A DNA stretch of 64,000 bases from Candidatus Nealsonbacteria bacterium (GCA_011050465.1 DRFQ01000009.1:334-64333); one strand, 5' to 3'; shown: positions 2,771 to 35,668, counted from the stretch's first letter. Program-made: numbers and translations. The notes: a model not told the origin generated them from the sequence alone.

Positions 2771-4255
2771 ATGGAATTATATGAACTTACTATTACTAAA
2801 GCTCACGAGAAACTTGTCAAGAGAGAGATATCATCTTTTGAACTTACTAAAGCTTTTTTAGAAAGAACAGAGGATTTAAATAAAAAAATTTCTTCATATT
2901 TAACAGTTACTTTCGACTCAGCGCTATCTGAAGCAAAAAAGATTGATGATTTAATTCGTCAGAGGAAAAAAATTAGTATGTTGGCAGGAATTCCTCTGGC
3001 TATTAAGGACAATATTCTAGTCGAGGGCGTGAGATGTACAGCAGCTTCAAAAATTTTAGAGGCCTATATTGCTCCTTACGATGCTACCGTGGTAAAAAGA
3101 ATTAAAGAGCAAGGAGCAGTTATCTTAGGAAAGACTAATTTAGATGAATTTGCCATGGGTTCTTCGACTGAGAATTCGGCTTTTGGGACAACAAAGAATC
3201 CTTATGACTTAATGCGGGTCCCTGGTGGTTCTTCGGGAGGATCAACAGCTGCCGTAGCAGCCAATATGTGTTGTTATGCTTTAGGCTCTGATACAGGAGG
3301 TTCTATCCGTCAGCCAGCTTCTTTTTGCGGGGTAGTTGGTTTAAAGCCTACCTATGGAGCAGTTTCTCGTTATGGCTTAATTGCTATGGCTTCTTCTTTG
3401 GATCAGATAGGGTTAGCAACAAAGACAGTAGAGGATGCTAAAATTGTATTTGAGGCGATTGCAGGGAAAGACCCCCTCGATTCAACATCGGTTGAATTAC
3501 CAAAACTACCCGCCAGAGGCGAGGCTCGCCAGAGGCGGCAAACTACAAACTACAGCCCACAGACTTTAAAGATCGGTGTCCCTAAAGAGTACTTTATTCA
3601 AGGAATGGATCCAGAAGTAGAAAGAATAATCCGGGATTCGATTGAGAAGCTCGAAAGTTTAAAGATAAAAATTGAAGAAATTTCTCTTCCTCACACAGAT
3701 TACGCTTTAGCCAGTTATTATATTATTATGCCGTCTGAAGCTTCAGCAAACTTAGCCAGATACGATGGCATAAAGTACGGACATTCTATAACCAGAGACC
3801 GGAAGGCAGAGGTCAAAAATTTATTAGATGTCTATCTAAGATCGAGAGAAGGAGGTTTTGGAGAGGAGGTGAGACGAAGAATCATGTTGGGCACTTATGT
3901 ATTATCTGCGGGTTATTACGAAGCTTACTATTTGAGAGCGCAGAAAGTCAGGACTTTGATTAAGAAAGATTTTGAAAAAGCCTTTCAAAAAGTAGATTTA
4001 ATTTTAACTCCCGTTTCGCCAACGCCAGCCTTTAAAATCGGAGAAAAAATTACCGACCCTTTAACCATGTATCTTTCAGATGTTTTCACCATTGCGGTCA
4101 ATTTAGCTGGTTTGCCGGCAATATCTATTCCTGTTGGAAAGATAGGAAAGCTCCCGGTTGGTCTTCAGATAATCGGGAAGCCTTTTTCAGAGAATACGAT
4201 TTTAGAATTTGGTCAATTTTTTGAAGAAAACCAAATATTTTTTGAAAAAAATTAA
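2771..4255 (+). CDS. gatA: Asp/Glu-tRNA amidotransferase subunit A
   Basis: Amidase signature GGSSGGSTAAVAA and GSDTGGSIRQPASFCG. A GC-rich in-frame insert lies at about 3509-3560 (PARGEARQRRQTTNYSPQ). Confidence 0.93.
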   Translation: MELYELTITKAHEKLVKREISSFELTKAFLERTEDLNKKISSYLTVTFDSALSEAKKIDDLIRQRKKISMLAGIPLAIKDNILVEGVRCTAASKILEAYIAPYDATVVKRIKEQGAVILGKTNLDEFAMGSSTENSAFGTTKNPYDLMRVPGGSSGGSTAAVAANMCCYALGSDTGGSIRQPASFCGVVGLKPTYGAVSRYGLIAMASSLDQIGLATKTVEDAKIVFEAIAGKDPLDSTSVELPKLPARGEARQRRQTTNYSPQTLKIGVPKEYFIQGMDPEVERIIRDSIEKLESLKIKIEEISLPHTDYALASYYIIMPSEASANLARYDGIKYGHSITRDRKAEVKNLLDVYLRSREGGFGEEVRRRIMLGTYVLSAGYYEAYYLRAQKVRTLIKKDFEKAFQKVDLILTPVSPTPAFKIGEKITDPLTMYLSDVFTIAVNLAGLPAISIPVGKIGKLPVGLQIIGKPFSENTILEFGQFFEENQIFFEKN

Positions 4256-4264
4256 AATCAGAGT

Positions 4265-4759
4265 ATGGAATTTTTCTTATCCCCCAACCCCACAATTATT
4301 TTAGTTTTAAAAATTGTTTTTGGTTCAATCTCTTTGTTTTTAATTATTAGTATTATTTATTTTATCGTTAAAAGTAATTACTTGATAACTGTTTATTTGC
4401 GTGATGTAACCGAAGTGTTGTCTTATAAGCCTTATGGAACGAGAAAAATTGTTAAACAGTGGAATAAGATTAAAAGCAGGTTAGATTTGTCCTCTGAGGC
4501 TGAACATAAATTAGCAGTAATTGAGGCCGATAATCTTTTAAATGAAACCTTGGAAAGAATGGGTTACGATGGAGATACCGTGGGTGAGAAATTAAAACAA
4601 ATTACGTCTATTAGGCTTCCCAATATTGATCAGATTCTAGAGGCTCACAAGATCCGTAATAATATTGTTTATGACCCTGACTATCAACTTTCTTTAGATC
4701 AGGGCCAGAGGGCTTTAGAAATTTACGAAAAAACTCTTCAAGAGCTACAAGTGCTTTGA
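4265..4759 (+). CDS. Hypothetical membrane-anchored protein
   Basis: N-terminal hydrophobic helix (IILVLKIVFGSISLFLIISIIYFIV). No recognisable catalytic motif. Confidence 0.5.
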   Translation: MEFFLSPNPTIILVLKIVFGSISLFLIISIIYFIVKSNYLITVYLRDVTEVLSYKPYGTRKIVKQWNKIKSRLDLSSEAEHKLAVIEADNLLNETLERMGYDGDTVGEKLKQITSIRLPNIDQILEAHKIRNNIVYDPDYQLSLDQGQRALEIYEKTLQELQVL

Positions 4760-4767
4760 GACTTCAT

Positions 4768-4935
4768 CCCCCCACCTATTTTGCCAGTTGACATACTGGA
4801 GACACACGATGGGCGAATAGCCCAGTCCACCGAAGGTGGGCCTCACTATTCATGAGAGTGTGTCGCAGGAATTTAACCTCTATATTTTGTATATTTTGGT
4901 TAAACTTAAGATTGAGTAGTAAAATAGGTGGGGGG
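4768..4935. other. Structured GC-rich element enclosed by a perfect 15-bp inverted repeat (candidate ncRNA or palindromic element)
   Basis: ccccccacctatttt (4768-4782) pairs with aaaataggtgggggg (4921-4935). Inner stems are gacacac/gtgtgtc, tgggc-gaata-gccca and ccacc-gaa-ggtgg. Confidence 0.35.
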
Positions 4936-4965
4936 TTGACCCTCCCGTCTTTTTCGTAATATAAT
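4936..4965 (+). promoter_or_regulatory. Sigma70-like promoter of the tRNA operon
   Basis: TTGACC (4936-4941), an 18-nt spacer, then TATAAT (4960-4965). The first tRNA starts 7 nt downstream. Confidence 0.6.
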
Positions 4966-4971
4966 GAACGA

Positions 4972-5043
4972 CGCGCCGTGGAGAAACGGTTATCTCGCCT
5001 GTCTCATAAGCAGGAGCAGTAGGTTCAACTCCTACCGGCGCAA
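4972..5043 (+). tRNA. tRNA-Met (CAU), initiator-like
   Basis: A cloverleaf was folded by hand, with anticodon loop CTCATAA. C1xA72 mismatch and an A11:U24 pair are bacterial initiator hallmarks, but the three G:C pairs of the anticodon stem are absent. CCA is not encoded. Confidence 0.8.
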
Positions 5044-5095
5044 CAATATTGTAAAGCAAATTTGACCGATAACTATTTTGGTAGAATTGGAATTT

Positions 5096-5168
5096 GCCGG
5101 TGTAGCTCAGTGGTTAGAGCAGGGCCTTCATAAGGCCAAGGTCATAGGTTCAAATCCTGTCACCGGCA
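5096..5168 (+). tRNA. tRNA-Met (CAU), elongator type (Ile2/lysidine type not excluded)
   Basis: Acceptor GCCGGTG/CACCGGC, D arm GCTC-AGTGGTTA-GAGC, anticodon loop TTCATAA, T arm ATAGG-TTCAAAT-CCTGT. Confidence 0.85.
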
Positions 5169-5321
5169 TAACGCCGGGTTCGTCCCGTCATTCGACGAGG
5201 CGTCCAGTCGGATGGCTGGGCGAGTCCCACCCTCGGCATAAAATTCGAATAGACCCGTGGTGTAGCCCGTTCGGATACTACGGAGCAAGCACGTTTTTCT
5301 GTCAATTTCGTACCAAAATTT

Positions 5322-5397
5322 GGGCGCGTGGTGTAGCCTGGTTTAACGCGCTTCCCTGTCACGGAAGAGATCGCCGGTTCAAATCCGGTCGCGCCCG
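5322..5397 (+). tRNA. tRNA-Asp (GUC)
   Basis: Acceptor GGGCGCG/CGCGCCC, anticodon arm CTTCC-CTGTCAC-GGAAG, T arm GCCGG-TTCAAAT-CCGGT, discriminator G. Confidence 0.9.
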
Positions 5398-5434
5398 CAC
5401 TTCGACAAGCTCAGTGCAAGACAAAAATTCATCT

Positions 5435-5443
5435 TGATATAAT
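5435..5443 (+). promoter_or_regulatory. Extended -10 promoter (TGATATAAT) for the sigma factor gene
   Basis: A perfect TGnTATAAT lies about 45 nt upstream of ATG 5490. An SD-like GGGAGTGAGAG precedes the start. Confidence 0.4.
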
Positions 5444-5489
5444 AAAAAAAACGAACGGCAGTACAATACCACAAGAAAGGGAGTGAGAG

Positions 5490-6296
5490 ATGTCGGACAG
5501 CACCTTAACAAATAAGAATGATAGCACTTTGGTACAAGCAGCTGAAATTCCACAGAAACCTAATTTTAAAGAAGTGTATACTCAGTACTACAGGCGTATT
5601 CTACGCTATATACAGGCAAGAACTAATAGCCTTGAGATCGCCGAAGATCTGACAGGAAAAGTATTTCTTAAAGCCCTTGAGAGCTACAGAAGATTTAGAA
5701 TGAAAGAAGGCCCAGAATCGCCCAGATTTTGGCTTTTTCGCATAGCCCACAATATCGTTGTGAGTTGGCAAAGAAAAAACGTTATAAGGTTTATCAGGCT
5801 CGATGAAATTGATCTACATATTCCCGATAATCTCGTCGATATCATTGAGAAGAAAGTTAAACGCACTTGGCTCTTGCAGGCAATAAAGAATTTAATATCC
5901 GGGCAGCAATTAGTAATTGCTTTGATTATTTTCTTCGGTTTCAAACTAAAACAAATCGCTAAGATTTTAGACGTTACAGAGGGTTGTGTAAAAACAAGAA
6001 AGCATAAAGCCATCAAAGTTTTGAGGCTGGCAGTTTCAGCTGATAGACTCGACAATAACGAGAATAATAGAGGAACCCTTTCTATTATTGATGTAATTGA
6101 AGCTGCAAAGCATGTTTTGGACTCTGGGCTGCCGCAAACCTCAGCGCCATTACATCAAGTCTTTTCTCTTGAAGTGGCAAAGATCCTGGAAGAAAGAGGC
6201 TACCGATTTCCGGATATTCTTAAGGTTTTATCATCTTTACCGGAAGATTTTTTCAAAGAAATTATTAAAGAGAATCCATACACGCTGAAAATATAG
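5490..6296 (+). CDS. Sigma-70 family (ECF-like) RNA polymerase sigma factor with a C-terminal extension
   Basis: Region 2-like FWLFRIAHNIVVSWQRK. Region 4 HTH LKQIAKILDVTEGCVKTRKHKAIKVLR. An extra C-terminal tail of about 80 aa. Confidence 0.8.
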   Translation: MSDSTLTNKNDSTLVQAAEIPQKPNFKEVYTQYYRRILRYIQARTNSLEIAEDLTGKVFLKALESYRRFRMKEGPESPRFWLFRIAHNIVVSWQRKNVIRFIRLDEIDLHIPDNLVDIIEKKVKRTWLLQAIKNLISGQQLVIALIIFFGFKLKQIAKILDVTEGCVKTRKHKAIKVLRLAVSADRLDNNENNRGTLSIIDVIEAAKHVLDSGLPQTSAPLHQVFSLEVAKILEERGYRFPDILKVLSSLPEDFFKEIIKENPYTLKI

Positions 6297-6376
6297 AACG
6301 AGATTGTTCAATTTATTTTGTAACTAGCTGAGTTTCAGTTATTAAAATCGTATTCAATAAAAGTAACTGAAAGGTA

Positions 6377-6405
6377 GCTGCCGAGCATAACTTGGCGGCT
6401 TTTTA
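6377..6405 (+). terminator. Intrinsic terminator after the sigma factor gene
   Basis: gctgcc-N11-ggcggc stem followed by TTTTTATTTT. Confidence 0.55.
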
Positions 6406-6458
6406 TTTTATCCGTATCACTTTTTGTTTAGAGCAAATTCCATTACCCTTTCTAAAAT

Positions 6459-6486
6459 ACAAAAAGTGGCGGCAGCGGCCGCCACT
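6459..6486 (-). terminator. Intrinsic terminator of the Xer-like gene
   Basis: The minus strand reads agtggcgg-ccgctg-ccgccact followed by TTTTTG. Confidence 0.55.
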
Positions 6487-6506
6487 TTGACTTCAGTGGC
6501 TTAGTT

Positions 6507-7382
6507 TTAGATTTGAAGTCTTTCCCGGAAACGATCTACAGAGTGTTGGTGAGTATGACCAAGTAATTGCTGGAGTTTCTCAGAAGAAACCCCAAGGGCT
6601 AATTGTCGAGCAGCAAAGTTGTATCTTAAGGCCCGTGGAGTTACTTCATTTTTTAGGTTAGCTGAATGAGCGCATTCTCGGATTATCCACCAGACACCAT
6701 TACGGGTCAGTCTCTCGCCGCGTTGATTAAGAAAAAGGGCCTTTTCTTTGAGTGCTTTTTCGGATCGGCCACTAATCAGTTTTAGCCTTGCTTTCTGTAT
6801 ATATTCAGATAGAGCCAAAACTACCCGGAAAGGAAGAGAAATTTTTCTTATATTTCCCCGGTGGCAGATTTTGATTTCGGGATATTCTGCACCTAAATCA
6901 GCCATTTCTAAGTCTAGCGATACTAATTCCGAAGGCTGTATTCCAGTAGCCAGGAATAGTTCTATCATTGCCGAATCTCTAATTCCTTTTGGAGTAGCAC
7001 GTTTGGCTAAAATTTCCAGAAGTTTTTTTATTTTTTTATCGGTTAAAACCTCAAAAATTGTTTTTGGGCTTTCTCTATAAAAAGCCATTTCTTCCACAAG
7101 ATTCTCTTTTATCAGTTTTTTGGCTTTCAAATACCCAAGGAAAGACCTTAGAGCGGCAAGCCTTCGATTTATTGTTGCGCTAGCTATATTCTGTTCCTTC
7201 AGCCATTCGTTATAATCCCTAATGATTTTTGAGTCCATTGTCTTTACGGTTGGCTGTCCTGGATGATTGGCGCAGAATCTTAGGAACTCACTTAAGTCCC
7301 GTCGATAGCTCAAGAGTGTATTATTAGCTGCTGCTTTTTTTGTTTGCATAAAGACGAGAAATTCCTTGATCAGCGTTTCCAT
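6507..7382 (-). CDS. XerC/XerD-like tyrosine recombinase homologue with degenerate active site
   Basis: N-terminal core-binding pattern (NTLLSYRRDLSEFLRF) and C-terminal LRYNFA and LLGH boxes. The Arg-I context reads ATGIQPSEL (Q where R is expected). No Tyr follows LLGH (THQHSVDRFRERLQI-stop). Confidence 0.75.
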   Translation of the reverse strand: METLIKEFLVFMQTKKAAANNTLLSYRRDLSEFLRFCANHPGQPTVKTMDSKIIRDYNEWLKEQNIASATINRRLAALRSFLGYLKAKKLIKENLVEEMAFYRESPKTIFEVLTDKKIKKLLEILAKRATPKGIRDSAMIELFLATGIQPSELVSLDLEMADLGAEYPEIKICHRGNIRKISLPFRVVLALSEYIQKARLKLISGRSEKALKEKALFLNQRGERLTRNGVWWIIRECAHSANLKNEVTPRALRYNFAARQLALGVSSEKLQQLLGHTHQHSVDRFRERLQI

Positions 7383-7480
7383 TGGATTTCACCTCCTATT
7401 AAGTTGTTCAAGAGCAATTCTTTTCTCAAGTTTATATTGATAGAAAAATCCTAAATTGTCAAATTTTCTAAAAGGGGAGC

Positions 7481-7510
7481 TTGACAGAGGTTCTTGAAAA
7501 AGGATATATA
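7481..7510 (+). promoter_or_regulatory. Sigma70-like promoter of a candidate small RNA
   Basis: TTGACA (7481-7486), a 17-18 nt spacer, then ATATAT/TATATA. Confidence 0.5.
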
Positions 7511-7517
7511 GATATAA

Positions 7518-7708
7518 GGGTGGTCCTCGAGACGTTTCGTCGTCGCACCTCCTGGGAACGCATTTCCCTCTAGCACCCCCTAGGGGCATACGTTCCTTTG
7601 TGGCGAGTCACGAGCTAGTTGCTTTCTTGAGGGTCACCCGACAGCTCTTATCATTTATTGCTCTTTTCGTAGTGTAATGGCCTTTCTCTTGCTGAGAGGT
7701 CATTTTTT
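7518..7708 (+). ncRNA. Candidate stand-alone structured small RNA (about 190 nt), identity unknown
   Basis: Own promoter. A GC-rich body with an 11-bp closing helix, gggtggtcctc (7518-7528) pairing with gagggtcaccc (7629-7639), and inner hairpins (ggaacg/cgttcc). Intrinsic terminator at 7678-7708. The ORF on the opposite strand (7389-7589) looks spurious. Confidence 0.4.
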
Positions 7709-7713
7709 CTTGA

Positions 7714-7741
7714 CCCTTCACCTTTAGCTAAAGGTGAAGGG
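7714..7741. promoter_or_regulatory. Perfect 28-bp palindrome (candidate operator) flanked by two TTGACC boxes
   Basis: cccttcacctttagctaaaggtgaaggg is its own reverse complement. It sits just upstream of the -35 of the pyrE-like promoter. Confidence 0.5.
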
Positions 7742-7770
7742 TTGACCATATCCTTCTAATCTGATAGAAA
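7742..7770 (+). promoter_or_regulatory. Promoter of the pyrE-like/pyrF-like operon
   Basis: TTGACC (7742-7747), a 17-nt spacer, then TGATAGAAA (extended -10 type). Confidence 0.4.
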
Positions 7771-7847
7771 CAAGAACAGGAGGCATTTCTTTAACAATTG
7801 AATAAGGGAAGATAAAGAGGACGCGATCAAGCAAGGAGGTAGACGGA

Positions 7848-8594
7848 ATGGGAATCGAGAATAACGCTTTGAATATTTTAGAGGCAGGGGCGGTAGAAAT
7901 TAGAAATGTTCCCCTGAAAGTAACGAATGAGGAAGTAGAAACGCTTCCTCGAGGAAAACAGCCCTTTCTCTACGCCTCAGGTAATTGGGGTCCCGGTTAT
8001 GTGATGATTAAAGACCTGGTTGGACGAAAAAAGACAATAAAGCTTCTCATCAAACAGTTAGCCATTAAGGTGGCAAGGGAAATTCCTCGCCTGGATTTTG
8101 TTGCCGGTAATGTTACCGGAGGAATAATCCCTGGCTGGCAACTTAGCGAAGAACTAGAACTGTTGCTTGGAAAGACCATACCCTTTGTTTACATCCGGGA
8201 AGCTCGGAAAAAGGGCGGACAGAAAGAGTTGATTACTGGGATTGCTGGCAATCCAGAGATTCCGCCAGGAGCCAATGGTTTGGTCGTAGAAGAATTGGTC
8301 AATTTCGCCCAGACTACTTGCAATAGTGCCGATATATTAAGAGAAGCAGGACATGTGGTTAATTACGCAGCAACTATTCTTTTTTATGATAATCCTGAGG
8401 CAATCAGAATTCTTCAAGAGCGTGGGATTGAGATGATATATCTTTTGACTCTACCAGAGCTCTTGACGGTGGCAGAAAAGCATCTGATTTTTTCTCAGCA
8501 AGCTATTGAGAGTTACCGGACATTTCTTACCAATCCGTTAGAATGGCAGATGACCAAAGGCCTAAGGCCAATCGAAAGAGGAGGAACTCTTTGA
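7848..8594 (+). CDS. Type I phosphoribosyltransferase, orotate PRTase-like
   Basis: PRPP-loop-like GLVVEELVNFAQTT (EE in place of the usual DD) and REARKKGGQKE. The SD AAGGAGG lies upstream. Confidence 0.65.
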   Translation: MGIENNALNILEAGAVEIRNVPLKVTNEEVETLPRGKQPFLYASGNWGPGYVMIKDLVGRKKTIKLLIKQLAIKVAREIPRLDFVAGNVTGGIIPGWQLSEELELLLGKTIPFVYIREARKKGGQKELITGIAGNPEIPPGANGLVVEELVNFAQTTCNSADILREAGHVVNYAATILFYDNPEAIRILQERGIEMIYLLTLPELLTVAEKHLIFSQQAIESYRTFLTNPLEWQMTKGLRPIERGGTL

Positions 8595-9307: not shown

Positions 9308-9379
9308 AGCCTAGGTGAAAGGCTAAAAACTCACTGGAAAAAACTGGTCGGAAAACAATAATTATACTATAATTTTAAA

Positions 9380-9405
9380 GTCGCTGGATTCAGCGACCTT
9401 TTTAT
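9380..9405 (+). terminator. Intrinsic terminator
   Basis: gtcgctg-gatt-cagcgac followed by CTTTTTATTT. Confidence 0.6.
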
Positions 9406-9563: not shown

Positions 9564-10613
9564 ATGCCAAATCTAAAATTGCTTCAAAAAAAGATTGAAA
9601 AAGATCTAAAAGAAGCTAAAAAATTGAGACAACTTGAAAACGTTTTCCAAAAATATTTAGGTAAAAAAGGCGAAATTACCGGGATTTTACGTTCTTTAAA
9701 AAACCTGTCTCAAACAAAAAGGATTAAAACTGGAAAAGAGGCGAATGAGCTTAAAAGCATTATCAAACAAAAAATAGAAGTTAAAACAAAAAAAATACGT
9801 TCCATTGAAAGGGTCGCCAAAGAAACAGGATGGATTGATATTACTATTCCCGGCAAAAAACCCTTGGCTGGCCATTTGCACCCTTTAACTTTAGTCAAAA
9901 GACAAGTTGAGGAGATATTTCAAGCAATGGGCTTTTCGGTGGTTGATGGGCCAGAAATTGAAACCGAATGGTATAATTTCGATGCCTTAAATATTCCCAA
10001 GGATCATCCGGCTCGCGACATGTGGGATACTTTTTGGCTAAAAGACAGTAAATTACTTTTAAGAACTCATACCTCTCCGGTCCAGATTAGATATATGGAA
10101 AAAAATAATCCTCCTATAAAAATTATTGTGCCCGGAAGAATTTTTCGTCACGAAGCAACTGACGCCTCCCACGAAACTAATTTCTATCACGTCGAAGGAT
10201 TAGTGGTTGATCAAGAAACTTCAACTGCCCATTTTAAATCTATAATCCAGGAGTTTTTCAAAAGATTTTTTTCTGGATCCTCCGAAGCTTTACGCAAAGG
10301 AGGACAAAAAGAAACTAAGATACGCATGAGGCCGAGCTATTTTCCGTTCACTGAACCTTCTTTTGAAATAGATATGAGTTGTTCGAATTGCCAGGGCAAA
10401 GGATGTTCAGCTTGTTCCCAGACCGGCTGGATGGAAATGATGGGAGCTGGAATGGTTCATCCTAATGTCCTCAAAGCCGCTGGTCTGAATCCTAAAAACT
10501 GGCAAGGTTTTGCCTTTGGGATGGGTTTAGACAGATTGGCAATGATGAAATATAAAATCAACGACATCCGCCTTTTTTATGGCGGTGACCTAAGATTTTT
10601 AAATCAATTTTAA
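9564..10613 (+). CDS. pheS: Phenylalanyl-tRNA synthetase alpha subunit
   Basis: FRHEATDASHETNFYHVEG, PSYFPFTEPSFE and GFAFGMGLDRLAMM. A GC-rich in-frame insert lies at about 10275-10312. Confidence 0.93.
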   Translation: MPNLKLLQKKIEKDLKEAKKLRQLENVFQKYLGKKGEITGILRSLKNLSQTKRIKTGKEANELKSIIKQKIEVKTKKIRSIERVAKETGWIDITIPGKKPLAGHLHPLTLVKRQVEEIFQAMGFSVVDGPEIETEWYNFDALNIPKDHPARDMWDTFWLKDSKLLLRTHTSPVQIRYMEKNNPPIKIIVPGRIFRHEATDASHETNFYHVEGLVVDQETSTAHFKSIIQEFFKRFFSGSSEALRKGGQKETKIRMRPSYFPFTEPSFEIDMSCSNCQGKGCSACSQTGWMEMMGAGMVHPNVLKAAGLNPKNWQGFAFGMGLDRLAMMKYKINDIRLFYGGDLRFLNQF

Positions 10614-10618
10614 AAATT

Positions 10619-11563: not shown

Positions 11564-11576
11564 CCGCTCGGCAACG

Positions 11577-11694
11577 AAGCTTCAAAGTACCGACCCTCAA
11601 AATCCCAGCGAGATTTTGGGGTCTGCGTTCTCGGCTCGTCGTCCGCCCTCGGCGGAACCATGCCGTCGAGCCTCCGAAAGCTACTTTGAAGCTT
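11577..11694. other. GC-rich structured element between the NIF3-like gene and pheT
   Basis: A 13-bp perfect outer stem, aagcttcaaagta (11577-11589) with tactttgaagctt (11682-11694), encloses three hairpins, including ccgcc-ctc-ggcgg. Confidence 0.4.
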
Positions 11695-11729
11695 GCTACC
11701 TCGCTTTTTAAGAAAAATGAGAGAGAATT

Positions 11730-13835
11730 ATGAAATTTTCTTATAATTGGTTAAAAGACCTTATTTCGGGCAAACTGCCAGAGCCTGTCAAACTGGCAGA
11801 TCTTTTAAATATGCATAGTTTTGAGGTTAATGAAATAAAAAGAGCGGGTTCAGATTGGATGATAGATATTGATGTTTTGCCGAATAGGGGACCGGATTGT
11901 TTTTCTCATACAGGAATAGCCCGAGAAGTAGCTGTCATAACCAGCACGAAACTAAAAATTAACCCTTCGACAAGGCTCAGGGTTAATGCTGAGCAGCGTC
12001 GAAGCATTAAAGAAGAAAAATTTATTGAAGACAGAAATTCCAAAATTAAAGACTTTATGGGCGTAGATGTCAAATATCTGCGGGCTTGTCCTCGCTATAC
12101 TGCCAGGATTTTGCATGGAATAACAGTTGGTCCTTCACCAAAATTTATCCAAGAAAGATTAAAAGTTTGTGGACTGAGGCCAATTAATAACATAGTTGAT
12201 ATTACAAATTATGTAATGCTGGAGACTGGCCAGCCCCTTCATGCTTTTGACGGCGAAAAATTGGAAGGCCAAAAAATCATTGTTCGCTTTGCCAGAAATA
12301 ACGAGAAAATTACTACATTAGATGGGGAGAAATATGATTTAGATAGAAATATTTTAGTTATTGCAGACGATAGAAAACCTATAGCAATTGCTGGTATCAA
12401 GGGAGGAAAGATTCCGGAAGTTACCAAGAGAACAAAAATCATTATAATTGAATCAGCTAATTTTAACCCTCAGATTATTAGAAAGGGATCCCAAAGATTG
12501 AATTTAAAGACCGATGCTTCCTTGCGTTTTGAACACGGTATTGATCCCAACCTGACAGAGATAGCTGTTGATCAAGCAGCTTCTCTTATACAGAAAATTA
12601 CCGGCGGGAGAATACAGAAAGATTTGATTGATTTTTATCCAAAAAAAGTTTTATCGAAAAAAGTAAATTTAGACTTAAATTATGTCGAAAGATTATTAGG
12701 TGTAAAGATTTCGAAGAACGAAATAACCAAGATATTAAGAGATCTTGGGTTCAAAATCTCTCAACTCTCAAAACTTAAACTCCAGGTTGAAATTCCGACC
12801 AGAAGACTGGATATTTCTTTACCGGAAGATCTAATAGAAGAAATTAGTCGAATTTACGGCTACAAAAATATTCCTGCAACTTTTCCTTTAACTGTTTTGT
12901 CACCCCCAAGAAGAAATAATTTAATTTTCTGGGAAGATTTTTCAAAGAGAATTCTCAAAGAACTTAGCCTTACCGAAGTTTATAATTATTCTTTTTTAGG
13001 AGAAGAATTAAGAGAAACTTTCGGTTATAAAGTTAAAGAATTAATTGAGATAGAAAATCCAGCCAGCGTCAAACAAAAATATTTAAGGCCAAGCTTAATT
13101 CCCAATTTATTGGTTAATCTTAAAACAAACCTGAAGTATTTCGACAATATTAGAATTTTTGAATTAGGAAAAATATATAGAAAAAGGAGAATGACAGAGA
13201 AAAGAATGCTTAGCGTTGCTATTTTAAAAAAAGAAGGTGGTTCTCGTTCTCAATCAGAAATATTTCTTGAATTAAAAGGAATCATTGATGCTTTGTTAAA
13301 TCAATTAGGGATAAGTAATATCTGGTATGATTTCTACAAACCCGCCCCAACGGAAAGCAGGACATTTTTTTGGCAACTAAAAAAATCGGCTGAAATTAAG
13401 ATTGACCGAAAAGAAATCGGGTTTTTGGGTACAATTTCTCCCAAGATTTTAGACAAGCTAAAGATTACTGAGAATTTGGTCTTTTTCGAGATTGATTTTG
13501 ATGAATTAGCTCAATTATGTTCAGAAGAGCACGAGTTTAGGCCGTTATCTCGTTATCCTGCAGCGGTTAGAGACTTAGCTGTCTTGGTGCCCGGAGGAAT
13601 TTTGGTTGAGGAGGTTTTAAATATAATTAATGTGGTTGGCGGCAGGGTAGTCCGGGATGTAGATCTTTTTGATATTTACGAAGGGCAAGAACTGCCGGAA
13701 GGTAAGAAGAATTTAGCTTTCCATATTATTTATCAAGCCCAAGATAAGACTTTGAAATCATCCGAAATTGATAAAATTCATCAAAAAATAATAAAAGCCC
13801 TAGAAAAAAAGCCAGAATGGCAAGTTAGACAATAA
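11730..13835 (+). CDS. pheT: Phenylalanyl-tRNA synthetase beta subunit
   Basis: B3/4 domain (GQPLHAFD), B5 region, and a C-terminal FDX-ACB-like DLFDIYEG...LAFHI. A GC-rich in-frame insert lies at about 11959-12005. Confidence 0.92.
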   Translation: MKFSYNWLKDLISGKLPEPVKLADLLNMHSFEVNEIKRAGSDWMIDIDVLPNRGPDCFSHTGIAREVAVITSTKLKINPSTRLRVNAEQRRSIKEEKFIEDRNSKIKDFMGVDVKYLRACPRYTARILHGITVGPSPKFIQERLKVCGLRPINNIVDITNYVMLETGQPLHAFDGEKLEGQKIIVRFARNNEKITTLDGEKYDLDRNILVIADDRKPIAIAGIKGGKIPEVTKRTKIIIIESANFNPQIIRKGSQRLNLKTDASLRFEHGIDPNLTEIAVDQAASLIQKITGGRIQKDLIDFYPKKVLSKKVNLDLNYVERLLGVKISKNEITKILRDLGFKISQLSKLKLQVEIPTRRLDISLPEDLIEEISRIYGYKNIPATFPLTVLSPPRRNNLIFWEDFSKRILKELSLTEVYNYSFLGEELRETFGYKVKELIEIENPASVKQKYLRPSLIPNLLVNLKTNLKYFDNIRIFELGKIYRKRRMTEKRMLSVAILKKEGGSRSQSEIFLELKGIIDALLNQLGISNIWYDFYKPAPTESRTFFWQLKKSAEIKIDRKEIGFLGTISPKILDKLKITENLVFFEIDFDELAQLCSEEHEFRPLSRYPAAVRDLAVLVPGGILVEEVLNIINVVGGRVVRDVDLFDIYEGQELPEGKKNLAFHIIYQAQDKTLKSSEIDKIHQKIIKALEKKPEWQVRQ

Positions 13836-13939
13836 ATCAGAAATTCTAAATTCGAAATCGGAAACCCCAGAACTATAAATCTTTCGGATTTAAGTTCAGG
13901 GCAGGCAAATTCTAAATTTAGGTATTGCTTGCCCCGTAG

Positions 13940-16042
<2,103 letters not shown>

Positions 16043-18079: not shown

Positions 18080-18160
18080 GCGATGTCACGGAGCGTGAAT
18101 CGCTTGAATTTCCGTCACTCGTCCCAGATGAAAATAAATTTTCACCCGTGGACATAAACT

Positions 18161-26095: not shown

Positions 26096-26295
26096 AATTT
26101 GTTCATTCTTGCCCCGTAGCTCCACTGAAAGCGGATGGTATCGGGGTGACCGTAAGTGATGATGTGTATTTCATACAAGTCATTCTAAAACAGAAAAGCG
26201 GCCCTTTCAAGACCGTTTTTCTTAAGAACATTGTCCGGTAACCTTACTTGCTCCGCAAGAACAATCAGAACCTGTTTCACAATAAGATTCGCTTT

Positions 26296-29269: not shown

Positions 29270-29318
29270 ATAAACGCGTTAGTATTTAAACATTTTTCAT
29301 CCGGATTTATTAAGACAT

Positions 29319-31076
29319 TCAGATGTTAATATGTTTGAATGTCTTTTTTTTTATTTCTATCTTGACTTTTTCTAAAAATTTATTTAATTCTATCTGTCCG
29401 ATATCGCCTCTATTTCTTTCTCTGACTCTTACTGATTTTGATTTTTTTTCTTTATCACCAACAACCAATAAATAAGGAATTTTTTGAATTTCTCCCTCTC
29501 TTATTTTTTTAGAAACGGTTTCGGCCGTATCCCTGATTTCATATCTTAAATCCAAGGTCTCAAACTTCTTGCCAATTTCTTGTGCATATTTTCGGTGGCG
29601 AGATCCTACTGGAATTACCCAGGCCTGAACAGGGGAGAGCCACAAAGGAAAAGATCCCGCATAATACTCAATTAATATACCTATAAATCTTTCCAGAGCT
29701 CCTAAAATAGCTCTATGAATCATAAATGGCTTTTGTTTTTTACCCTTTTTATTTATATAAGAGATATTGAATTTTTCTGGTAGGTTAAAGTCAAGTTGGA
29801 CTGTTGTACATTGCCAGGGTCTTCCCAGAGAATCTTCTATTTTGATATCAATTTTTGGTCCGTAGAAAACTCCTTCGCCAGGATCTATCTGGTATTTCAA
29901 TTTTGTTTTTTTCAGGGCGTATTTCAAACTGTTGATGGCTTTTTCCCAATTTTTTAACTCTCCAGTATATTTTTTAGGGCGGGTGGAAAGATAAACCTCA
30001 TACTTTTTAAATCCGAATGTTTTTAATATTTTTAGAGTTAGACGTAAAACAGAAATTAATTCAGTTCCCAGTTGCTCTGGTGTGCAAAATATATGAGCAT
30101 CATCTTGGGTAAAGCCTCTAACTCGAACCAGACCGTGCAAAACTCCGGATTTTTCGTATCTGTAAACTGTTCCGAACTCAGAAAATTTAATCGGTAAATC
30201 TTTGTAGCTTCTAATCTTAGATTTATAAATCTTAATGTGAAAAGGACAGTTCATTGGCCTTAAATAATATTTCTCTTTTTCAATCTCAAAAGGGGAATAC
30301 ATGTTTTCTTTGTAAAAATCTAGATGGCCAGAGGTTTTAAATAAGCTTTCTTTTCCAATGTGAGGAGAACTAACCAACTGATAACCTGTTTTCAATAGTT
30401 CTTGATTAATAAAGTCTTCAATGATTTTCCTCAGTATTGTTCCTTTCGGATGCCATAAAGGCAACCCTGCTCCTACTTCAGGATCAAAAGAAAATAAATC
30501 TAATTTTTGGCCTAAAAGTCGATGGTCTCTTTTTTTAGCTTCTTCTTGCTTCCTGTGATAATCATCGAGTTCTTTTTTTGTTTTAAAGGCTACTCCGTAG
30601 ATCCTGGTGAGCATTGTCCTTGTTTCAGATCCACGCCAATACGCTCCGGCAATTTTGGTCAATTTAAAAGCGTCTGGAATCTCTTTCGCCTGCCCCGAAC
30701 GAAGTTGAAGGGTCGATTTAACATGAGGGCCCTTGCAAAGATCTACAAAATCGCCTGATTCATAAACAGACACTCTGTCGTCTTTTATTTCATTTATTAA
30801 CTCTAATTTATAAGACTGATTTTTGAATATCTTTCTTGCTTCAGTTTTTGGAATTAACCTTTTTTTGAAGGTAATATTTTGCTGAAGGAGGCTCCTCATT
30901 TTTTTCTCGATTTTCGGTAGATCGGCGGGGGTTAAACTTTTTGGCAGGTCAAAATCATAATAAAAACCATTCTCAATTATGGGGCCGATACCAAGCTTCA
31001 CTTCCGGATAGAACTGTTGAACAGAATGAGCCATTATATGAGCCAAAGAATGTCTGATTATCTCTATATTTTTCAT
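29319..31076 (-). CDS. thrS: Threonyl-tRNA synthetase (no TGS domain)
   Basis: HSLAHIMA (editing/SAD), RPMNCPFH, FGTVYRYEKSG, GFTQDDAHIF and an anticodon-binding C-terminus. Confidence 0.93.
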   Translation of the reverse strand: MKNIEIIRHSLAHIMAHSVQQFYPEVKLGIGPIIENGFYYDFDLPKSLTPADLPKIEKKMRSLLQQNITFKKRLIPKTEARKIFKNQSYKLELINEIKDDRVSVYESGDFVDLCKGPHVKSTLQLRSGQAKEIPDAFKLTKIAGAYWRGSETRTMLTRIYGVAFKTKKELDDYHRKQEEAKKRDHRLLGQKLDLFSFDPEVGAGLPLWHPKGTILRKIIEDFINQELLKTGYQLVSSPHIGKESLFKTSGHLDFYKENMYSPFEIEKEKYYLRPMNCPFHIKIYKSKIRSYKDLPIKFSEFGTVYRYEKSGVLHGLVRVRGFTQDDAHIFCTPEQLGTELISVLRLTLKILKTFGFKKYEVYLSTRPKKYTGELKNWEKAINSLKYALKKTKLKYQIDPGEGVFYGPKIDIKIEDSLGRPWQCTTVQLDFNLPEKFNISYINKKGKKQKPFMIHRAILGALERFIGILIEYYAGSFPLWLSPVQAWVIPVGSRHRKYAQEIGKKFETLDLRYEIRDTAETVSKKIREGEIQKIPYLLVVGDKEKKSKSVRVRERNRGDIGQIELNKFLEKVKIEIKKKTFKHINI

Positions 31077-31107
31077 ATTCTTATTTTATCACGAATGTAA
31101 AGAAAGT

Positions 31108-31132
31108 AAAAAAAACCGAGAACCGTTCTCGG
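31108..31132 (-). terminator. Intrinsic terminator of dnaE
   Basis: The minus strand reads ccgagaa-cgg-ttctcgg followed by TTTTTTTT. Confidence 0.65.
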
Positions 31133-31179
31133 AATTCATATCGCAATATAACAATTTAACAATGTAGCGATGTAACCAT

Positions 31180-34100: not shown

Positions 34101-34356
34101 TATCATCAATATTAGGTCTTTTCTGATCCATTCTTTCATAGGCCAGATAGGCTTCTACCCCCAGGATGGGTTTTAAACCTCGTTCTTTGGCTTTCTGATA
34201 GAATTCAACCGCTCCATATAGAGTTCCATGATCAGTTAAAGCAATCGAGTCCATTCCCAACTCTTTTACCCGATCTAAAAGCTCGTCGATCTTTGGCAGA
34301 CCATCGAGCAGTGAGTAGTGACTATGAACATGGAGGTGGGTAAACCTTTGAGTCAT
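31180..34356 (-). CDS. dnaE: DNA polymerase III alpha subunit
   Basis: PHP domain FTHLHVHSHYSLLDG, PDIDLDF, GLLKMDLLGL and a C-terminal OB fold. Length 1058 aa. Confidence 0.95.
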   Translation of the reverse strand: MTQRFTHLHVHSHYSLLDGLPKIDELLDRVKELGMDSIALTDHGTLYGAVEFYQKAKERGLKPILGVEAYLAYERMDQKRPNIDDKRYHLTLLVKNAEGYKNLVKLITKAHLEGFYYKPRVDMDLLKEYGKGLICLSGCLQGKISRLILAKKTKEAEELAFKFKEIFDQDSFYLEIQHHPKIKEQGIVNKGLIALSKKTKIPLVATQDVHYLKPEDAEAQDILMLINTGANSNDPERLTLKTDDFSLKSQTEMAAAFKSKPEAIENTQKIADLCNFQFELGKTKLPQFPLPADKTADEYLKELCHQGLEKRYKKLPKETIERLEYELSIIKQMGFASYFLIVQDFVKWAKGNRIIVGPGRGSAPGSLVSYLLDITTVDPLKYNLLFERFLNPERISLPDIDLDFADRRRDEVIEYVAQKYGRNKVAQIITFGTMAAKAVIRDVGRAMNYPYIYCDRIAKMIPLSFTLKETMEKVAEFKQIYETDSQARKLIDAAKKLEGVARHASTHACGVVISKEPLENIVPLQHPTQNEKIVVTQYEMGSIESLGLLKMDLLGLKNLTIIEDCLARIYVIRDTKIDIENIPQNDRKTYKLLQHGDSTGIFQLESDGMKRYLKELKPTEFEDIIAMIALYRPGPIELIPDYIKGKHKKRKVEYLHPDLKPILKSTYGICIFQEQLMQIVQKLAGFSLAEADILRKAIGKKIKSLLVAQKEKMMRGMKNNGIREEVAREIWRWILPFARYGFNKSHSTAYAAIAYQTAYLKAHYPIEFMAALLTSEKSDIERIGFLITECKKMGIQILPPDINESFRNFSVVPKENKIRFGLLTIKNVGHNVVDAIIKDREKGGTFKSIQDFISRIDSKDLNKKSLESLIKTGAFDQFEERNKLLSNLEKLLEHNREIRRAKNQGQKSLFGEGHSFNSNSNFVLSEASPLSQAEKLTWEKELLGLFVTSHPLEGFKKVFENVSPLSKVSKGLAGRFIKTGGVISKIKKVITKMGKPMLFINLEDQHDRIEVIAFPRVIEKNPTIFQENKIVLISGRIDNRGGTPKIICEEIEEIIETS

Positions 34357-34506
34357 ATTCTAATGGCTGATTCTAGAGATTATCCTATTATATAAAGTTT
34401 TTGGGCAAAAGAAAAGCCAATCTTTATATTGAACCAGAAATAATCTCTAATTGTTGCAGGGATTTACTTTCCCTAAAAATTTGCTAAAATGAGGCTGAAA
34501 AGAAAA

Positions 34507-35668
34507 ATGCCCAACACATCTTCCAGACTAAACGAACTTCAAGATAAACTCCATCATTTGATGGACTGTCTTTGAATTAGAGAAAAAGAAAGAGAAAATT
34601 AAAGAGCTGGAAAAAGAAAGAGAAAATCCTGATTTTTGGCAAAACCAGAAAAGAGCAGTCAGAATTAATCAAGACATCGCCCTTTTGAAAGAGGAAACAG
34701 AAAGACTCGAGAGTTTCAGAAAGGAACTGGACGATTTGGAAGAATTGAATAAATTAATTAAAGGAGAGGAGGTAAAAGACATTGAGAGCAAGATTGAATC
34801 TCTGGAAACAAAAATTAAAGAAGAAGAATTCAAAACTTTTCTCTCCGGAAAGTATGATAAATCTTCAGCTGTTCTTTCTATTTATGCAGGGGCCGGCGGA
34901 CAGGATTCTCAGGACTGGGCAACGATGCTGTTGAGAATGTATGAGAGATTTTGCTATGGCAGGGGATTTAGAACCAAAATTTTACATCAGTCTTTTGGCG
35001 AAGGCGGAGGGCCGGACGGAAGAATTGGGACGAAATCCGTAACCTTAGAAATTCAAGGGCACTATGCTTTCGGCTTTTTAAAAAAAGAATCAGGAGTTCA
35101 TAGGTTGGTTAGAATTTCGCCTTTTTCTCCCCAGCAACTTCGTCATACCTCTTTTGTTTTAGTTGAAGTTTTGCCGGAAATTGAAAAGGAGACAGAAGAT
35201 GAAATCAAAATCAAACCAGAAGATTTGAGAATTGATTTTTATCGAGCTTCGGGGCCCGGCGGCCAACATGTTAATCGTCGGGAAACAGCTGTCAGAATTA
35301 CCCATTTGCCAACCAACCTTGTGGCCTCTTGCCAGGCAGAAAGATCGCAGGGACAGAACAGAGAGAGAGCAATGAAGATGATTTATTCAAAACTTTATCA
35401 ATTGAAAGAGGCTGAACAGCAAGAAAAAATATCTCAGATAAAAGCCGCCGAACGGCAAGCTTCCCGCCTAAAGCGAGGTTCGCCCGAGGCGACGTCCGGA
35501 GGGCAGGGAAAAGCTATTTCAGCCAGCTGGGGAAATCAAATCAGGTCTTATGTCCTTCATCCATATAAATTAGTTAAAGATTTGAGAACCAATCTTGAAA
35601 CTTCAGACGTAGAAGGAGTATTAGACGGTAATCTGGGCCAATTCATTGAAGCCGGAATTAAAATATAA
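34507..35668 (+). CDS. prfB: Peptide chain release factor 2, with programmed +1 frameshift at 34570-34575 (CTT TGA)
   Basis: Frame 0 reads MPNTSSRLNELQDKLHHLMDCL then TGA. The +1 frame continues ELEKKKEKIKELEKERENPDFWQN..., then GGQHVNRRETAVRITH (GGQ) and WGNQIRSYV. A GC-rich in-frame insert lies at about 35444-35512. Confidence 0.9.

Follow-up and report, generated by a model that had tools for sequence, protein, structure and literature searches.

Introduction

Rickettsia palindromic elements (RPEs), reportedly described by Ogata et al. in 2000, include the classical RPE-1 of about 100-150 bp. GC-rich palindromic mobile elements also occur in the AT-rich compact genomes of fungal mitochondria, as GC clusters or double-hairpin elements and as the byp elements of Magnusiomyces, and are found there within genes too; the ribosome bypasses byp elements, which need not keep the frame. 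MITEs are short non-autonomous elements, typically of 70-300 bp, that can insert in-frame. Among bacteria, in-frame REPs and RPEs are known in uvrA, uvrB, dnaE and aaRS genes (PMC3733652). REPs, of the GTAG/CGTC super-families, are GC-rich imperfect palindromes of 20-40 bp, often arranged as inverted pairs (Di Nocera et al., 2013, PMC3733652), and intragenic REP dimers encode 20-30 aa in hosts including uvrB, dnaE and tRNA synthetase genes (PMC3733652).

Here we analyse GC-rich blocks in housekeeping genes of a 64-kb stretch of DNA (64,000 nt, the window) from Candidatus Nealsonbacteria. We consider it probable (roughly three chances in four) that these blocks are several families of ~30-69 nt, GC-rich, hairpin-forming, non-autonomous repeats of the REP/RPE type that circulate in CPR bacteria (Patescibacteria). 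No report of Rickettsia-like selfish DNA within genes was found for the CPR group.

In-frame insertions in eight housekeeping genes

The identities of the host genes, proS, gatA, pheS, pheT, gatB, miaB, thrS and prfB, are supported by NCBIfam and Pfam. All eight carry a GC-rich in-frame segment of 21-69 nt (50-80% GC vs 38% in the surroundings), and the reading frame is unbroken in every host ORF. The segments are missing in close relatives (orthologues 75-82% identical), proS being compared with the solved ProRS 5znj only. In-frame insertions had been predicted in at least eight housekeeping genes, and gaps in the alignments of relatives bear this out for 8/8. The alternative that the blocks are ancestral was checked by the same alignments, which show lineage-specific insertions, gained in the window's lineage. 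Their translations are rich in Arg, Gly, Gln and Ser, as anticipated.

The proS insert (886-956, + strand) encodes about 23 aa (SSFAPKKMSYGGSTEASGVGGQR). That of gatA (3509-3538, + strand; 10 aa, PARGEARQRR) is missing in P0242 (80% identical) and others; the block had been placed at 3509-3560, and its remainder, 3539-3560 (QTTNYSPQ), is ancestral. The pheS insert (10272-10304, + strand; 11 aa, SGSSEALRKGG) faces an exact 33-nt gap in the orthologue of L082 (80% identical), and the pheT insert (11958-12005, + strand; 16 aa, INPSTRLRVNAEQRRS) is found, among 120 homologues, only in the window and in P0001 (97% identical). Comparison of empty and filled sites in pheS and pheT revealed no target duplication. 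The gatB insert, with approximate borders at ~22012-22059 (+ strand; ~13-15 aa, containing GNFIPPRLQEGRGR), is missing in 23 CPR GatB relatives and in solved GatB. In miaB, a minus-strand gene, the insert lies at 24903-24948 (+ strand coordinates; 15 aa) and is missing in 9 MiaB relatives, while the thrS insert (30686-30706, - strand; 7 aa, within TLQLRSGQAKEIP) corresponds to a gap in 7 ThrRS relatives. Finally, the prfB insert (35444-35506, + strand; 21 aa, AAERQASRLKRGSPEATSGGQ) is missing in most RF2 relatives, some of which have an 11-aa version. An AlphaFold model presents the RF2 insert as a helix extension and a low-confidence loop (pLDDT <50 at residues 265-283), and it is predicted to be tolerated.

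A strain 98.3% identical to the window (L081) covers pheT and gatB and contains both inserts; this lack of any presence/absence difference gives no sign of recent mobility in the window's lineage. The gatB insert differs between the two by 5 substitutions in 55 nt and changes faster than its gene.

Self-complementarity

Self-complementarity was scored as z against shuffled sequences, using DNA and RNA folding. The self-complementarity claimed for these blocks is clear in pheT (z = -4.4), gatA (z = -3.3, DNA), proS (z = -2.9, DNA) and miaB (z = -2.0 to -2.7), and weak in pheS (z = -1.1), gatB (z = -1.1 to -1.2, a weak hairpin) and prfB (z = -0.9 for DNA, -2.0 for RNA). It does not extend to thrS, where the insert is GC-rich yet forms no hairpin (z = +0.4 to +1.8). 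When the whole window was scanned by folding 60-nt segments (mean MFE -9.6 kcal/mol), six of the eight inserts were among those with MFE <= -20 kcal/mol, a value that conserved coding regions likewise attain.

At least four unrelated repeat families

Among nine GC-rich coding blocks, i.e. the eight inserts and a conserved prfB block at 34990-35032, k-mers are shared beyond the composition-matched null of mononucleotide shuffles (8-mers, p = 0.02; 10-mers, p = 0.003), in agreement with the original prediction. Within the window, GCCTCTGGCG has 3 matches vs 0.06 expected, CGCC-N3-GGCG 4 vs 0.13, and GGATCCWCCGAAGC, with up to 2 mismatches, 3 vs 0.42. Other proposed links did not hold: GGCAGGC, put forward as a common core, occurs 5 times vs 3.0 expected, a count reached by 19/100 shuffles, and is missing from prfB. 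The GCCTCTGG at 47371, taken for a related copy, is probably a chance match, since it lies inside a terminator-like hairpin and is found within tRNA-Gln as well. Nor is there a single repeat family, as had been suggested. The blocks fall into at least four unrelated sequence families: A (gatA, gatB, prfB), B (miaB), C (pheT and tRNA trailers) and D (proS, pheS), with 3-4 copies of A, 3 of D and 3 related to C in the 64-kb window. The thrS insert, assigned to none of these families, shares the 9-mer GGGGCAGGC with that of miaB.

Family A is a twin CGCC-loop-GGCG hairpin whose elements begin with (C)CCGCC. The gatA insert (CCCGCC-AGA-GGCGAGG / CTCGCC-AGA-GGCGG) is 23/23 identical to positions 3221-3243 of metagenome contig L323, in an unrelated ORF of 679 aa and on the opposite coding strand. 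The gatB insert is a variant (TTTCATCCCGCCCC-loop-GGGGCGAGGC, then AGGCAA) that has TTTCATCCCGCCC and GGGCGAGGC in common with the L323 element. In prfB, an outer 33-nt element contains a nested 30-nt family-A copy at ~35463-35492 (CGCCTAAAGCGAGGTTCGCCCGAGGCGACG); P0122, P0147 and others have only the 33-nt version, GCCGCCGAAYGGCGAGCCTCGCCYGGAGGGCGG, at this site, and it belongs to the same family as the gatA insert. One and the same DNA is read as PARGEARQRR in gatA, SAASGEPRPDGRDE in L323 and AAERRASPGGR in RF2. L327 and L329 share 91% identity over the RF2 element, although their flanking codons differ. The 33-nt element occupies an identical single site across scattered lineages, and may thus have been inserted long ago and then precisely lost several times.

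The miaB insert is a partial family-B element, consisting of hairpin 2 (GTCCCGCACC-GAA..TTCT-GGTGCGGGG), inverted relative to the gene and with its apex replaced. Its stem and flanks recur, in opposite orientation, in the pheT inserts of L203 and L204, and on at least 120 metagenome contigs (median GC 0.39), where the full element is a 69-nt double hairpin (z = -9.5 and -7.5 for full copies). Among 47 non-redundant canonical copies, 42 have the same length, information content is ~0 beyond the 69-nt core, and neither a target-site duplication nor a repeated flank is seen. The termini are inverted repeats (CCCAGCACCAGAG vs CCCCGCACCAGAA, 11/13) and the hairpins are preceded by AAAC and AGTC/TGTC. 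Stems have compensatory pairs and conserved single-base bulges; apexes vary in sequence and are always self-complementary. Copies are >90% identical across contigs, whereas the host genes are only ~60% identical at the protein level.

With a length that is a multiple of three and no stop in any of the six frames, an openness found in 1% of composition-matched shuffles, family B would almost always be ORF-safe on insertion. Sixty percent of its copies lie within ORFs (at least 50 codons on each side) vs 52% of random positions. The hosts include PNPase, UvrB, IF-2, TsaD, PolX, H+-PPase, TrxR, Mur ligase, YebC, PheT, FemAB and the CCA-adding enzyme, as well as TatD at two sites and MiaB at a site other than the window's; membrane and metabolic enzymes are among them, and the copies have no consistent placement with respect to gene starts, gene ends or domain borders. 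One orientation and frame is shared by 26 of the 35 intragenic copies, a bias that reveals either selection on the peptide or some rule of targeting.

The family-C element in pheT is 48 nt long, with interleaved arms TTAACCC/GGGTTAA, CTTCGAC/GTCGAAG and GCTCAG/CTGAGC. It matches L267:3003 at 35/38 positions and an intergenic copy, L293:1352, at 34/37, and L264 has a reverse copy inside an ORF. Covariation is seen in stem A (CCC/GGG, CTC/GAG, TCC/GGA), and the ends ATTAACCC/GGGTTAAT are internal, not terminal. Family C is related to tRNA-trailer hairpins: the window has three occurrences of CTTCGACAAG, at 5400, 11965 and 60889, an intergenic relative (5398-5420, + strand; hairpin CACTTCGACAAGCTCAGTGCAAG) lies directly 3' of tRNA-Asp, and a second intergenic copy of CACTTCGACAAGCTCAGTGCAGG (60886-60910, + strand) lies 3' of a fragment resembling the 3' end of tRNA-Gln. 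Related copies thus sit in spacers too, as expected of repeats acting on both coding and intergenic DNA.

Family D comprises GGATCC hairpins, two in proS and one in pheS. In proS, two units are inverted around a central GGATCC (unit 1, ATCCTCC..GGAGGAT; unit 2, TCCACC-GAA-GCC-TCT-GGC-GTA-GGTGGA), with pattern matches at 913-926 (- strand) and 921-934 (+ strand). The single pheS unit, TCTGGATCC-TCC-GAA-GC-TTTAC-GC-AAA-GGAGGA, can be aligned to unit 2 of proS, and its stem differs by a compensatory change that can be read directly from the sequence. GTAG is found only within the internal loops of family-D units. A search of 1.3 Mb of CPR DNA revealed no relatives of this family other than those in the window.

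Spread among CPR bacteria

Near-identical relatives of families A-C occur on other CPR metagenome contigs; some lie in unrelated genes, others in spacers, and both orientations are represented. Occurrence of the same sequence in both orientations and different frames supports the view that the inserts are DNA-level repeats, not peptide motifs. In 120 PheT homologues there are 66 sporadic inserts at ~38 positions, with G, S, P, A and R overrepresented 1.8-2.5-fold, and identical peptide motifs recur at different sites in PheT, RF2 and GatA. The phenomenon is widespread in CPR bacteria and not peculiar to the Nealsonbacteria genome.

Origin of the inserts

The reading of the blocks as circulating REP/RPE-type repeats draws on patterns that the alignments show. 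The same DNA recurs in other CPR genomes: in unrelated genes, at differing positions of one gene, in either orientation and in spacers. Stems are preserved by compensatory changes, apexes are swapped between copies, and copies can nest in one another. Copying to new sites would most likely involve folded single strands on which an enzyme acts in trans; failing that, recombination or gene conversion would account for it. In gene-dense genomes most insertions would strike genes, and persisting copies would be those that keep the frame and lie in permissive surface loops; translation would then give essential proteins flexible loops rich in Gly, Ser, Pro, Ala and Arg, and the copies would gradually decay where they lie. 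A search for a mobilising enzyme gave a negative result: a serine recombinase is all that the window encodes, with no RAYT (Y1 HUH transposase) or IS200-type gene, and tblastn with approximate IS200 and IS608 TnpA queries gave no match in 3.3 Mb of DNA.

Independent, lineage-specific loop expansions under protein-level selection, for example Arg/Gly-rich loops holding RNA, would make self-complementarity and shared k-mers mere by-products. All eight hosts in the window act on tRNA or the ribosome, and the R-, G-, Q- and S-rich peptides go in the same direction, as do the single frame of GGGGCAGGC (Gly-Gln-Ala) in miaB and thrS, that of proS unit 2 and pheS (GS[ST]EA..GG), and the strong one-frame preference of family-B copies. 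However, the same DNA is read on both strands and in several frames (gatA, L323, RF2), copies occur in spacers (L293, tRNA trailers), family B also inhabits membrane and metabolic enzymes, and stems covary while apex sequences differ; we regard this explanation as quite improbable. Somewhat better, if still unlikely, is the proposal that the hairpins are selected nucleic-acid signals, such as binding sites for host proteins, mRNA stabilisers, pause sites or recombination sites of folded strands, whose spread in genes is domestication rather than selfish. It is compatible with the reading as circulating repeats, and agrees with the high identity of family B in hosts of ~60% identity, the conserved bulges, the family-C relatives directly 3' of tRNA genes and the RF2 element conserved between differing flanking codons. 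Against it stand the inconsistent positions relative to gene starts, ends and domain borders, the degenerate window copies (the replaced miaB apex, and a gatB insert that outpaces its gene) and the lack of any Rfam 15 match at the scanned window inserts or at the family-B/family-C copies of L203, L204 and L293.

Palindromes could also be made locally, by template switching, slippage or hairpin-mediated repair at fragile sites, with no transfer between sites. The tandem CGCCAGAGGCG pair in gatA, the nested prfB copy adjoining the first, the several lineages hit at one RF2 site and the lack of both a transposase and a target duplication would all fit. Yet the inserts are far GC-richer than their surroundings and were therefore not copied from flanking DNA, and near-identical elements recur across genes and genomes with unrelated flanks, which leaves local origin very unlikely. 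Although the window derives from a metagenome-assembled genome, an assembly or binning artefact is scarcely credible, given that an independent assembly of a different run (Logan SRR33235153, L081) also has the pheT and gatB inserts, that insert-bearing RF2 is found on 10 contigs (P0121), and that all host ORFs are intact.

Comparison with described elements

Taken as circulating repeats, the CPR elements would be of a REP/RPE-like kind already known, and differ in their CPR host, 30-69 nt size and six-frame openness. With REPs they share the size of the GC-rich palindromic unit, paired inverted units, in-gene hosts and the lack of target duplication. The GTAG/CGTC tag is, however, missing at the ends of the family-A and family-B consensus; REPs are also mostly extragenic, whereas family B does not avoid coding DNA (see above). 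Byp elements and GC clusters are organellar, and, unlike byp, the CPR elements preserve length and frame, which favours read-through translation. MITEs are likewise short and non-autonomous, and family B has terminal inverted repeats; the CPR elements nevertheless lack target-site duplications and a recognisable parent IS, and are much shorter. RPEs are palindromic repeats of a reduced AT-rich genome that lie in-frame in many housekeeping genes as well as in spacers; translation turns them into additional surface segments, and each genome has several families (PMC3733652). The CPR elements share these traits, being palindromic repeats in-frame in functional protein-coding genes and in non-coding DNA. 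They are 30-69 nt long, GC-richer than the genome and hosted by Patescibacteria, and are likened to RPEs by description, with no claim of membership. Family B further differs from RPEs in being conserved across distantly related hosts and open in six frames.

More tentatively, CPR bacteria may host an undescribed class of 'ORF-safe' multi-family hairpin elements (30-69 nt, a multiple of three, stop-free in six frames, with no avoidance of coding DNA) that spread across distant hosts without known REP/RAYT or IS200 machinery. If so, these elements would supply a large share of the new surface loops that essential proteins of ultra-small bacteria acquire.

Structured spacers in the window

A hairpin upstream of gyrB (13893-13942, + strand; GGGCAGGCAA..TTGCTTGCCCC; z = -3.2) has GGCAGGCAA in common with the gatB insert. 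It is present in L081 with one substitution and missing in L082, where the pheT-gyrB gap is 15 nt. Between pheT and the NIF3 gene lies a GC-rich, structured spacer (11575-11729, + strand) with no Rfam match; it has a CGCC-CTC-GGCG hairpin at 11644-11654 and is wholly replaced in L081, despite the 98.3% identity of that strain.

GC-rich blocks are in-frame insertions in core genes

Searches with NCBIfam and Pfam upheld the predicted gene names for proS (27-1160, partial), gatA (2771-4255), pheS (9564-10613), pheT (11730-13835), gatB (21685-23235), miaB (24767-26125, minus strand), thrS (29319-31076, minus strand) and prfB, encoding RF2 (34685-35668). The window has a G+C content of 37.8%, its GatA matches a protein of a Candidatus Nealsonbacteria metagenome-assembled genome at 100% identity, and the closest relatives of its gatB are all from CPR/Patescibacteria. 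The original prediction that GC-rich blocks in these genes are insertions is borne out by orthologue alignments, which place gaps at the blocks in both solved orthologues and close relatives. Against solved orthologues, gaps lie exactly at the blocks of gatA, gatB, prfB and proS. L082, an ENA contig whose gene order matches that of the window and whose proteins are 75-82% identical, lacks exactly 33 nt in pheS and exactly 48 nt in pheT, and the 16-aa PheT segment was found in only the window and one 97%-identical protein among 120 PheT homologues. At the respective blocks, relatives lack about 13-15 residues in GatB, 15 in MiaB and 7 in ThrRS, while the 21-aa RF2 segment is missing in most relatives and some carry an 11-aa version in the same place. 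The gatA block had been drawn too widely at 3509-3560: PARGEARQRR (30 nt, 3509-3538) is precisely missing from GatA relatives at 80% identity, but the same relatives indicate that the following QTTNYSPQ is ancestral. A 98.3%-identical strain that was assembled independently (L081) also carries the pheT and gatB inserts, which are thus not assembly artefacts. The inserts have been gained in a lineage-specific manner and are tolerated in essential genes; the phenomenon is real and wider than first proposed, although some of the proposed details were wrong.

Other candidates were rejected. The GC spike at 34990-35032 of prfB (EGGGPDGR) is conserved in all CPR RF2 examined and is therefore ancestral; this segment is missing from solved RF2 structures and represents a clade-level feature rather than a mobile insert. 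The intragenic folding windows at 4121, 8061, 10476, 18246, 19781, 31531 and 35856 correspond to conserved protein motifs, TCTGGTGCTGGG at 26468 was discarded as an element copy, and no window-specific inserts were found in gyrB, dnaE or the 27665 ORF.

Two features of the host genes were observed in passing. The prfB gene has a classical programmed +1 frameshift (34507-34690), with an ORF0 that starts at the ATG at 34507 and ends in CTT TGA (34569-34574), the +1 frame running on into the listed ORF. In window PheT (11730-13835) the N-terminal tRNA-binding domain is missing, and alignment to the bacterial PheT profile starts at position 159 of 798; CPR homologues of this protein have comparable lengths (660-762 aa).

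Hairpin potential and sequence sharing

The blocks had been described as palindromic, and measured against dinucleotide shuffles this holds in part. Hairpin z-scores were strongest for the inserts of pheT (-4.4), gatA (-3.3, DNA), proS (-2.9) and miaB (-2.0 to -2.7), followed by prfB (-0.9 as DNA, -2.0 as RNA), gatB (-1.1 to -1.2) and pheS (-1.1), whereas the thrS insert showed no such potential (+0.4 to +1.8). In a 60-nt scan of the whole window (mean -9.6, sd 4.3), six inserts were among the windows with MFE <= -20 kcal/mol, and a few conserved coding regions also fold strongly. A generic listing of inverted repeats was swamped by AT-rich chance palindromes and of no use, and Rfam gave no match at gathering or permissive thresholds.

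Sharing of k-mers was assessed on nine blocks, namely the eight inserts and the conserved one of prfB at 34990-35032. Different GC-rich coding blocks share 8-mers in 6 pairs (2.1 in shuffles, p = 0.02) and 10-mers in 2 pairs (0.12 in shuffles, p = 0.003), so that the predicted excess over a shuffled null is confirmed; GCCTCTGGCG occurs 3 times (0.06 expected) and CGCC-N3-GGCG 4 times (0.13 expected). GGCAGGC, proposed as a common core, is not enriched and is missing from prfB. Sequence is therefore shared between blocks as had been suggested, but among several families instead of a single one.

Families of dispersed hairpins

The clearest case is family B, a 69-nt double hairpin (z = -9.5 and -7.5) found at residue 88 of one CPR PheT and at residue 188 of another. 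Its hairpin 2, GTCCCGCACC-GAA...TTCT-GGTGCGGGG, is the window miaB block, which is inverted relative to the gene, has its apex replaced and retains hairpin 1 as a remnant. The hairpin is present in at least 120 metagenome contigs, with a median G+C of 0.39 among the matches listed. From 47 non-redundant canonical copies among these matches we derived the consensus AAR C CCAGCACC A GAGC RRA GCTC GGTGCTGG ACYAGT CCCGCACC GAAAC RAA GTTTC T GGTGCGGG G. Borders are sharp, length is identical in 42 of the 47 copies listed, and none of the 47 shows a target duplication. Stems carry compensatory changes. In hairpin 2 the apex takes many different sequences, some of them nested family-A-like hairpins, yet it is self-complementary in every case. 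All six frames of the consensus are free of stop codons, as is the case for ~1% of composition-matched shuffles. Among the listed matches, 28/47 copies (60%) are flanked on either side by at least 50 codons of the ORF that contains them, a setting that also applies to 52% of random positions on the same contigs, and all 28 have a length that is a multiple of three. Hosts include PNPase, UvrB, IF-2, MiaB (at another site), TsaD, PolX, H+-pyrophosphatase, TatD (two sites), thioredoxin reductase, Mur ligase, YebC, PheT, FemAB and the CCA-adding enzyme. Of the 35 clearly intragenic copies among the matches listed, 26 share an orientation and reading frame that yields K|PSTRAxLGAGxVPHRNxVSGAG. The window pheT insert also opens with PSTR, a peptide coincidence because the DNA differs. 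In L203, a CPR contig, the PheT gene with the double hairpin adjoins a gyrB (3251-8146) whose 1631-aa product has two intein splicing domains.

Family A comprises the gatA, gatB and prfB blocks. The gatA block, CCCGCC-AGA-GGCGAGG/CTCGCC-AGA-GGCGG, matches at 23/23 bases an element of contig L323 that lies inside an unrelated 679-aa ORF and is read on the other strand relative to gatA; TTTCATCCCGCCC and GGGCGAGGC are common to this element and the window gatB block. In relatives whose RF2 has the 11-aa insert, that insert is a 33-nt family-A-type element (GCCGCCGAAYGGCGAGCCTCGCCYGGAGGGCGG). Two RF2 genes, one 81% and the other 69% identical to window RF2, share this element at 91% identity and differ in the flanking codons. 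The window insert consists of this element carrying a further, nested family-A copy (CGCCTAAAGCGAGGTTCGCCCGAGGCGACG); in the structure model it lengthens the long helix and then forms a loop at residues 265-283 with pLDDT <50. Other copies were found in contigs L222 and L236.

In family D, the proS block is made of two oppositely oriented hairpin units arranged around a central GGATCC, and the pheS block of one unit (3 matches to the pattern, 0.42 expected). Alignment of proS unit 2 (GGATCC-A-CC GAA GCC TCT GGC GTA GG-T-GGA) with the pheS unit (GGATCC-T-CC GAA GC TTTAC GC AAA GG-A-GGA) shows a compensatory change in the outer stem; the inner stems differ yet still pair. A search of 1.3 Mb of other CPR DNA gave no relatives of this family.

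Family C, the 48-nt pheT block, has relatives in contigs L267 (35/38) and L293 (34/37, intergenic) and an inverted one inside an ORF of L264. Its outer stem covaries (TTAACCC/GGGTTAA, TTAACTC/GAGTTAA, TTAATCC/GGATTAA), and its core CTTCGACAAG-CTCAG is also found 3' of tRNA-Asp (5398-5420) and of a tRNA-Gln-like fragment (60886-60910). This core resembles a hairpin motif, N4-TTCGACAAGCTCA-N4', found in many viral-collection contigs of very different G+C.

Taken together, these are dispersed DNA-level repeats, inserted regardless of frame and orientation, whose hairpins are conserved and whose copies nest.

Two further observations concern these hairpins. The hairpin CACTTCGACAAGCTCAGTGCA(A/G)G lies directly 3' of tRNA-Asp and of a fragment resembling the 3' end of tRNA-Gln. 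The TTCGACAAGCTCAGNGC core occurs in at least 120 viral-collection contigs (G+C 0.34-0.72), an exact-match count that, for a pattern of 16 bases, by itself stands little above chance; the case for the motif rests instead on extended shared context. Among the matches listed, the core usually takes the form (G)CCC-TTCGACAAGCTCA-GGGC with covarying stems. It looks like a cross-phylum hairpin motif, for which we found no name.

Spread across CPR proteins and relation to known elements

We counted 66 sporadic inserts (>=5 aa), spread over about 38 alignment positions, in 120 CPR PheT sequences. Their composition is shifted towards G, S, P, A and R (1.8-2.5-fold enrichment) and away from I, D, E, F, L and K. 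Peptide motifs recur across positions and proteins (for example NPPTTRQGK, GDE.K.SSSPF, CPVGS..DSYG and PVKS..AKQFNRV). Palindromic inserts of unrelated sequence are also present in other GatB genes, and one of these has a perfect 19-bp stem.

The elements are REP/RPE-like in-frame hairpin elements. The closest described situations, in which elements behave similarly, are Rickettsia palindromic elements (RPE) and intragenic REPs, whose dimers encode 20-30 aa in uvrA, uvrB, dnaE and tRNA synthetase genes (Di Nocera et al., PMC3733652). Unlike REPs, the CPR elements have no terminal GTAG or CGTC tag and no known transposase partner; compared with typical MITEs they are shorter, target duplications are absent, and family B is distinguished by not avoiding coding DNA and by its six-frame-open design. 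No description of such elements for CPR/Patescibacteria came up in the literature searched, nor any of the sequences or peptides themselves.

As to mechanism, folded single strands may be copied by a trans-acting enzyme, or spread may be driven by recombination, and a later filter would retain frame-preserving copies in permissive loops. No mobilising enzyme was found in the window, and genomes sharing the 69-nt hairpin seem to lack the usual transposases; a tblastn search of 3.3 Mb of DNA for IS200/IS608 TnpA gave no matches, a weak negative. Since the split from the 98.3%-identical L081, no evidence of activity was seen between the two strains. The GC-rich structured spacer 11575-11729 is nevertheless swapped wholesale between them. 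Because the 69-nt element combines a length divisible by three with six open frames, its copying between genomes is directly testable.

If this reading is correct, a sizeable share of unexplained length variation in CPR core proteins would be selfish hairpin DNA rather than adaptation. This would bear on CPR marker-gene alignment and phylogeny, on structure prediction and annotation, where the elements would make recurrent 'junk' peptides such as PSTRAKLGAGPVPHRNEVSGAG, and on selection estimates in reduced genomes; it would also provide a natural experiment on random loop insertion tolerated by essential enzymes.

Other repeats and islands in the window

The spacer 11575-11729 (L081:712-881; L082:6342-6503) lies between a NIF3-family gene and pheT, folds strongly and has no Rfam family match. 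Its replacement in L081 is a different GC-rich structured sequence, and L082 (75-80% identical) keeps a window-like version. The 98.3%-identical strain also differs from the window by a 12-nt indel (ACTCGCTAGGAA) at 18151, in the spacer before the first thyX-like gene.

A map of 11-mers shared between the window and CPR loci was too noisy at low thresholds and recovered only family B, by construction, and the CTTGCCCCGTAG motif. This motif (CTTGCCCCGTAG / CTACGGGGCAAG) lies just upstream of the gyrB (13928-13940) and miaB (26106-26119) starts and is present in 11/134 further loci of low G+C, most of them from CPR; it could represent a regulatory site or an additional repeat module.

Finally, the region 37388-62000 looks like tandem integrated islands. 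After a tRNA-Gln (37388-37461) come a serine recombinase (38299-39615) and a type I restriction-modification system (40510-45737), and the region contains repeated tRNA-3'-end-like fragments, a module CAGCGCAGTATCGAGGCCGACCGAGAGGCC at 47321, 49830, 51270 and 60917, and a block of 44-51% G+C (51-57 kb) with large ORFs without Pfam matches.
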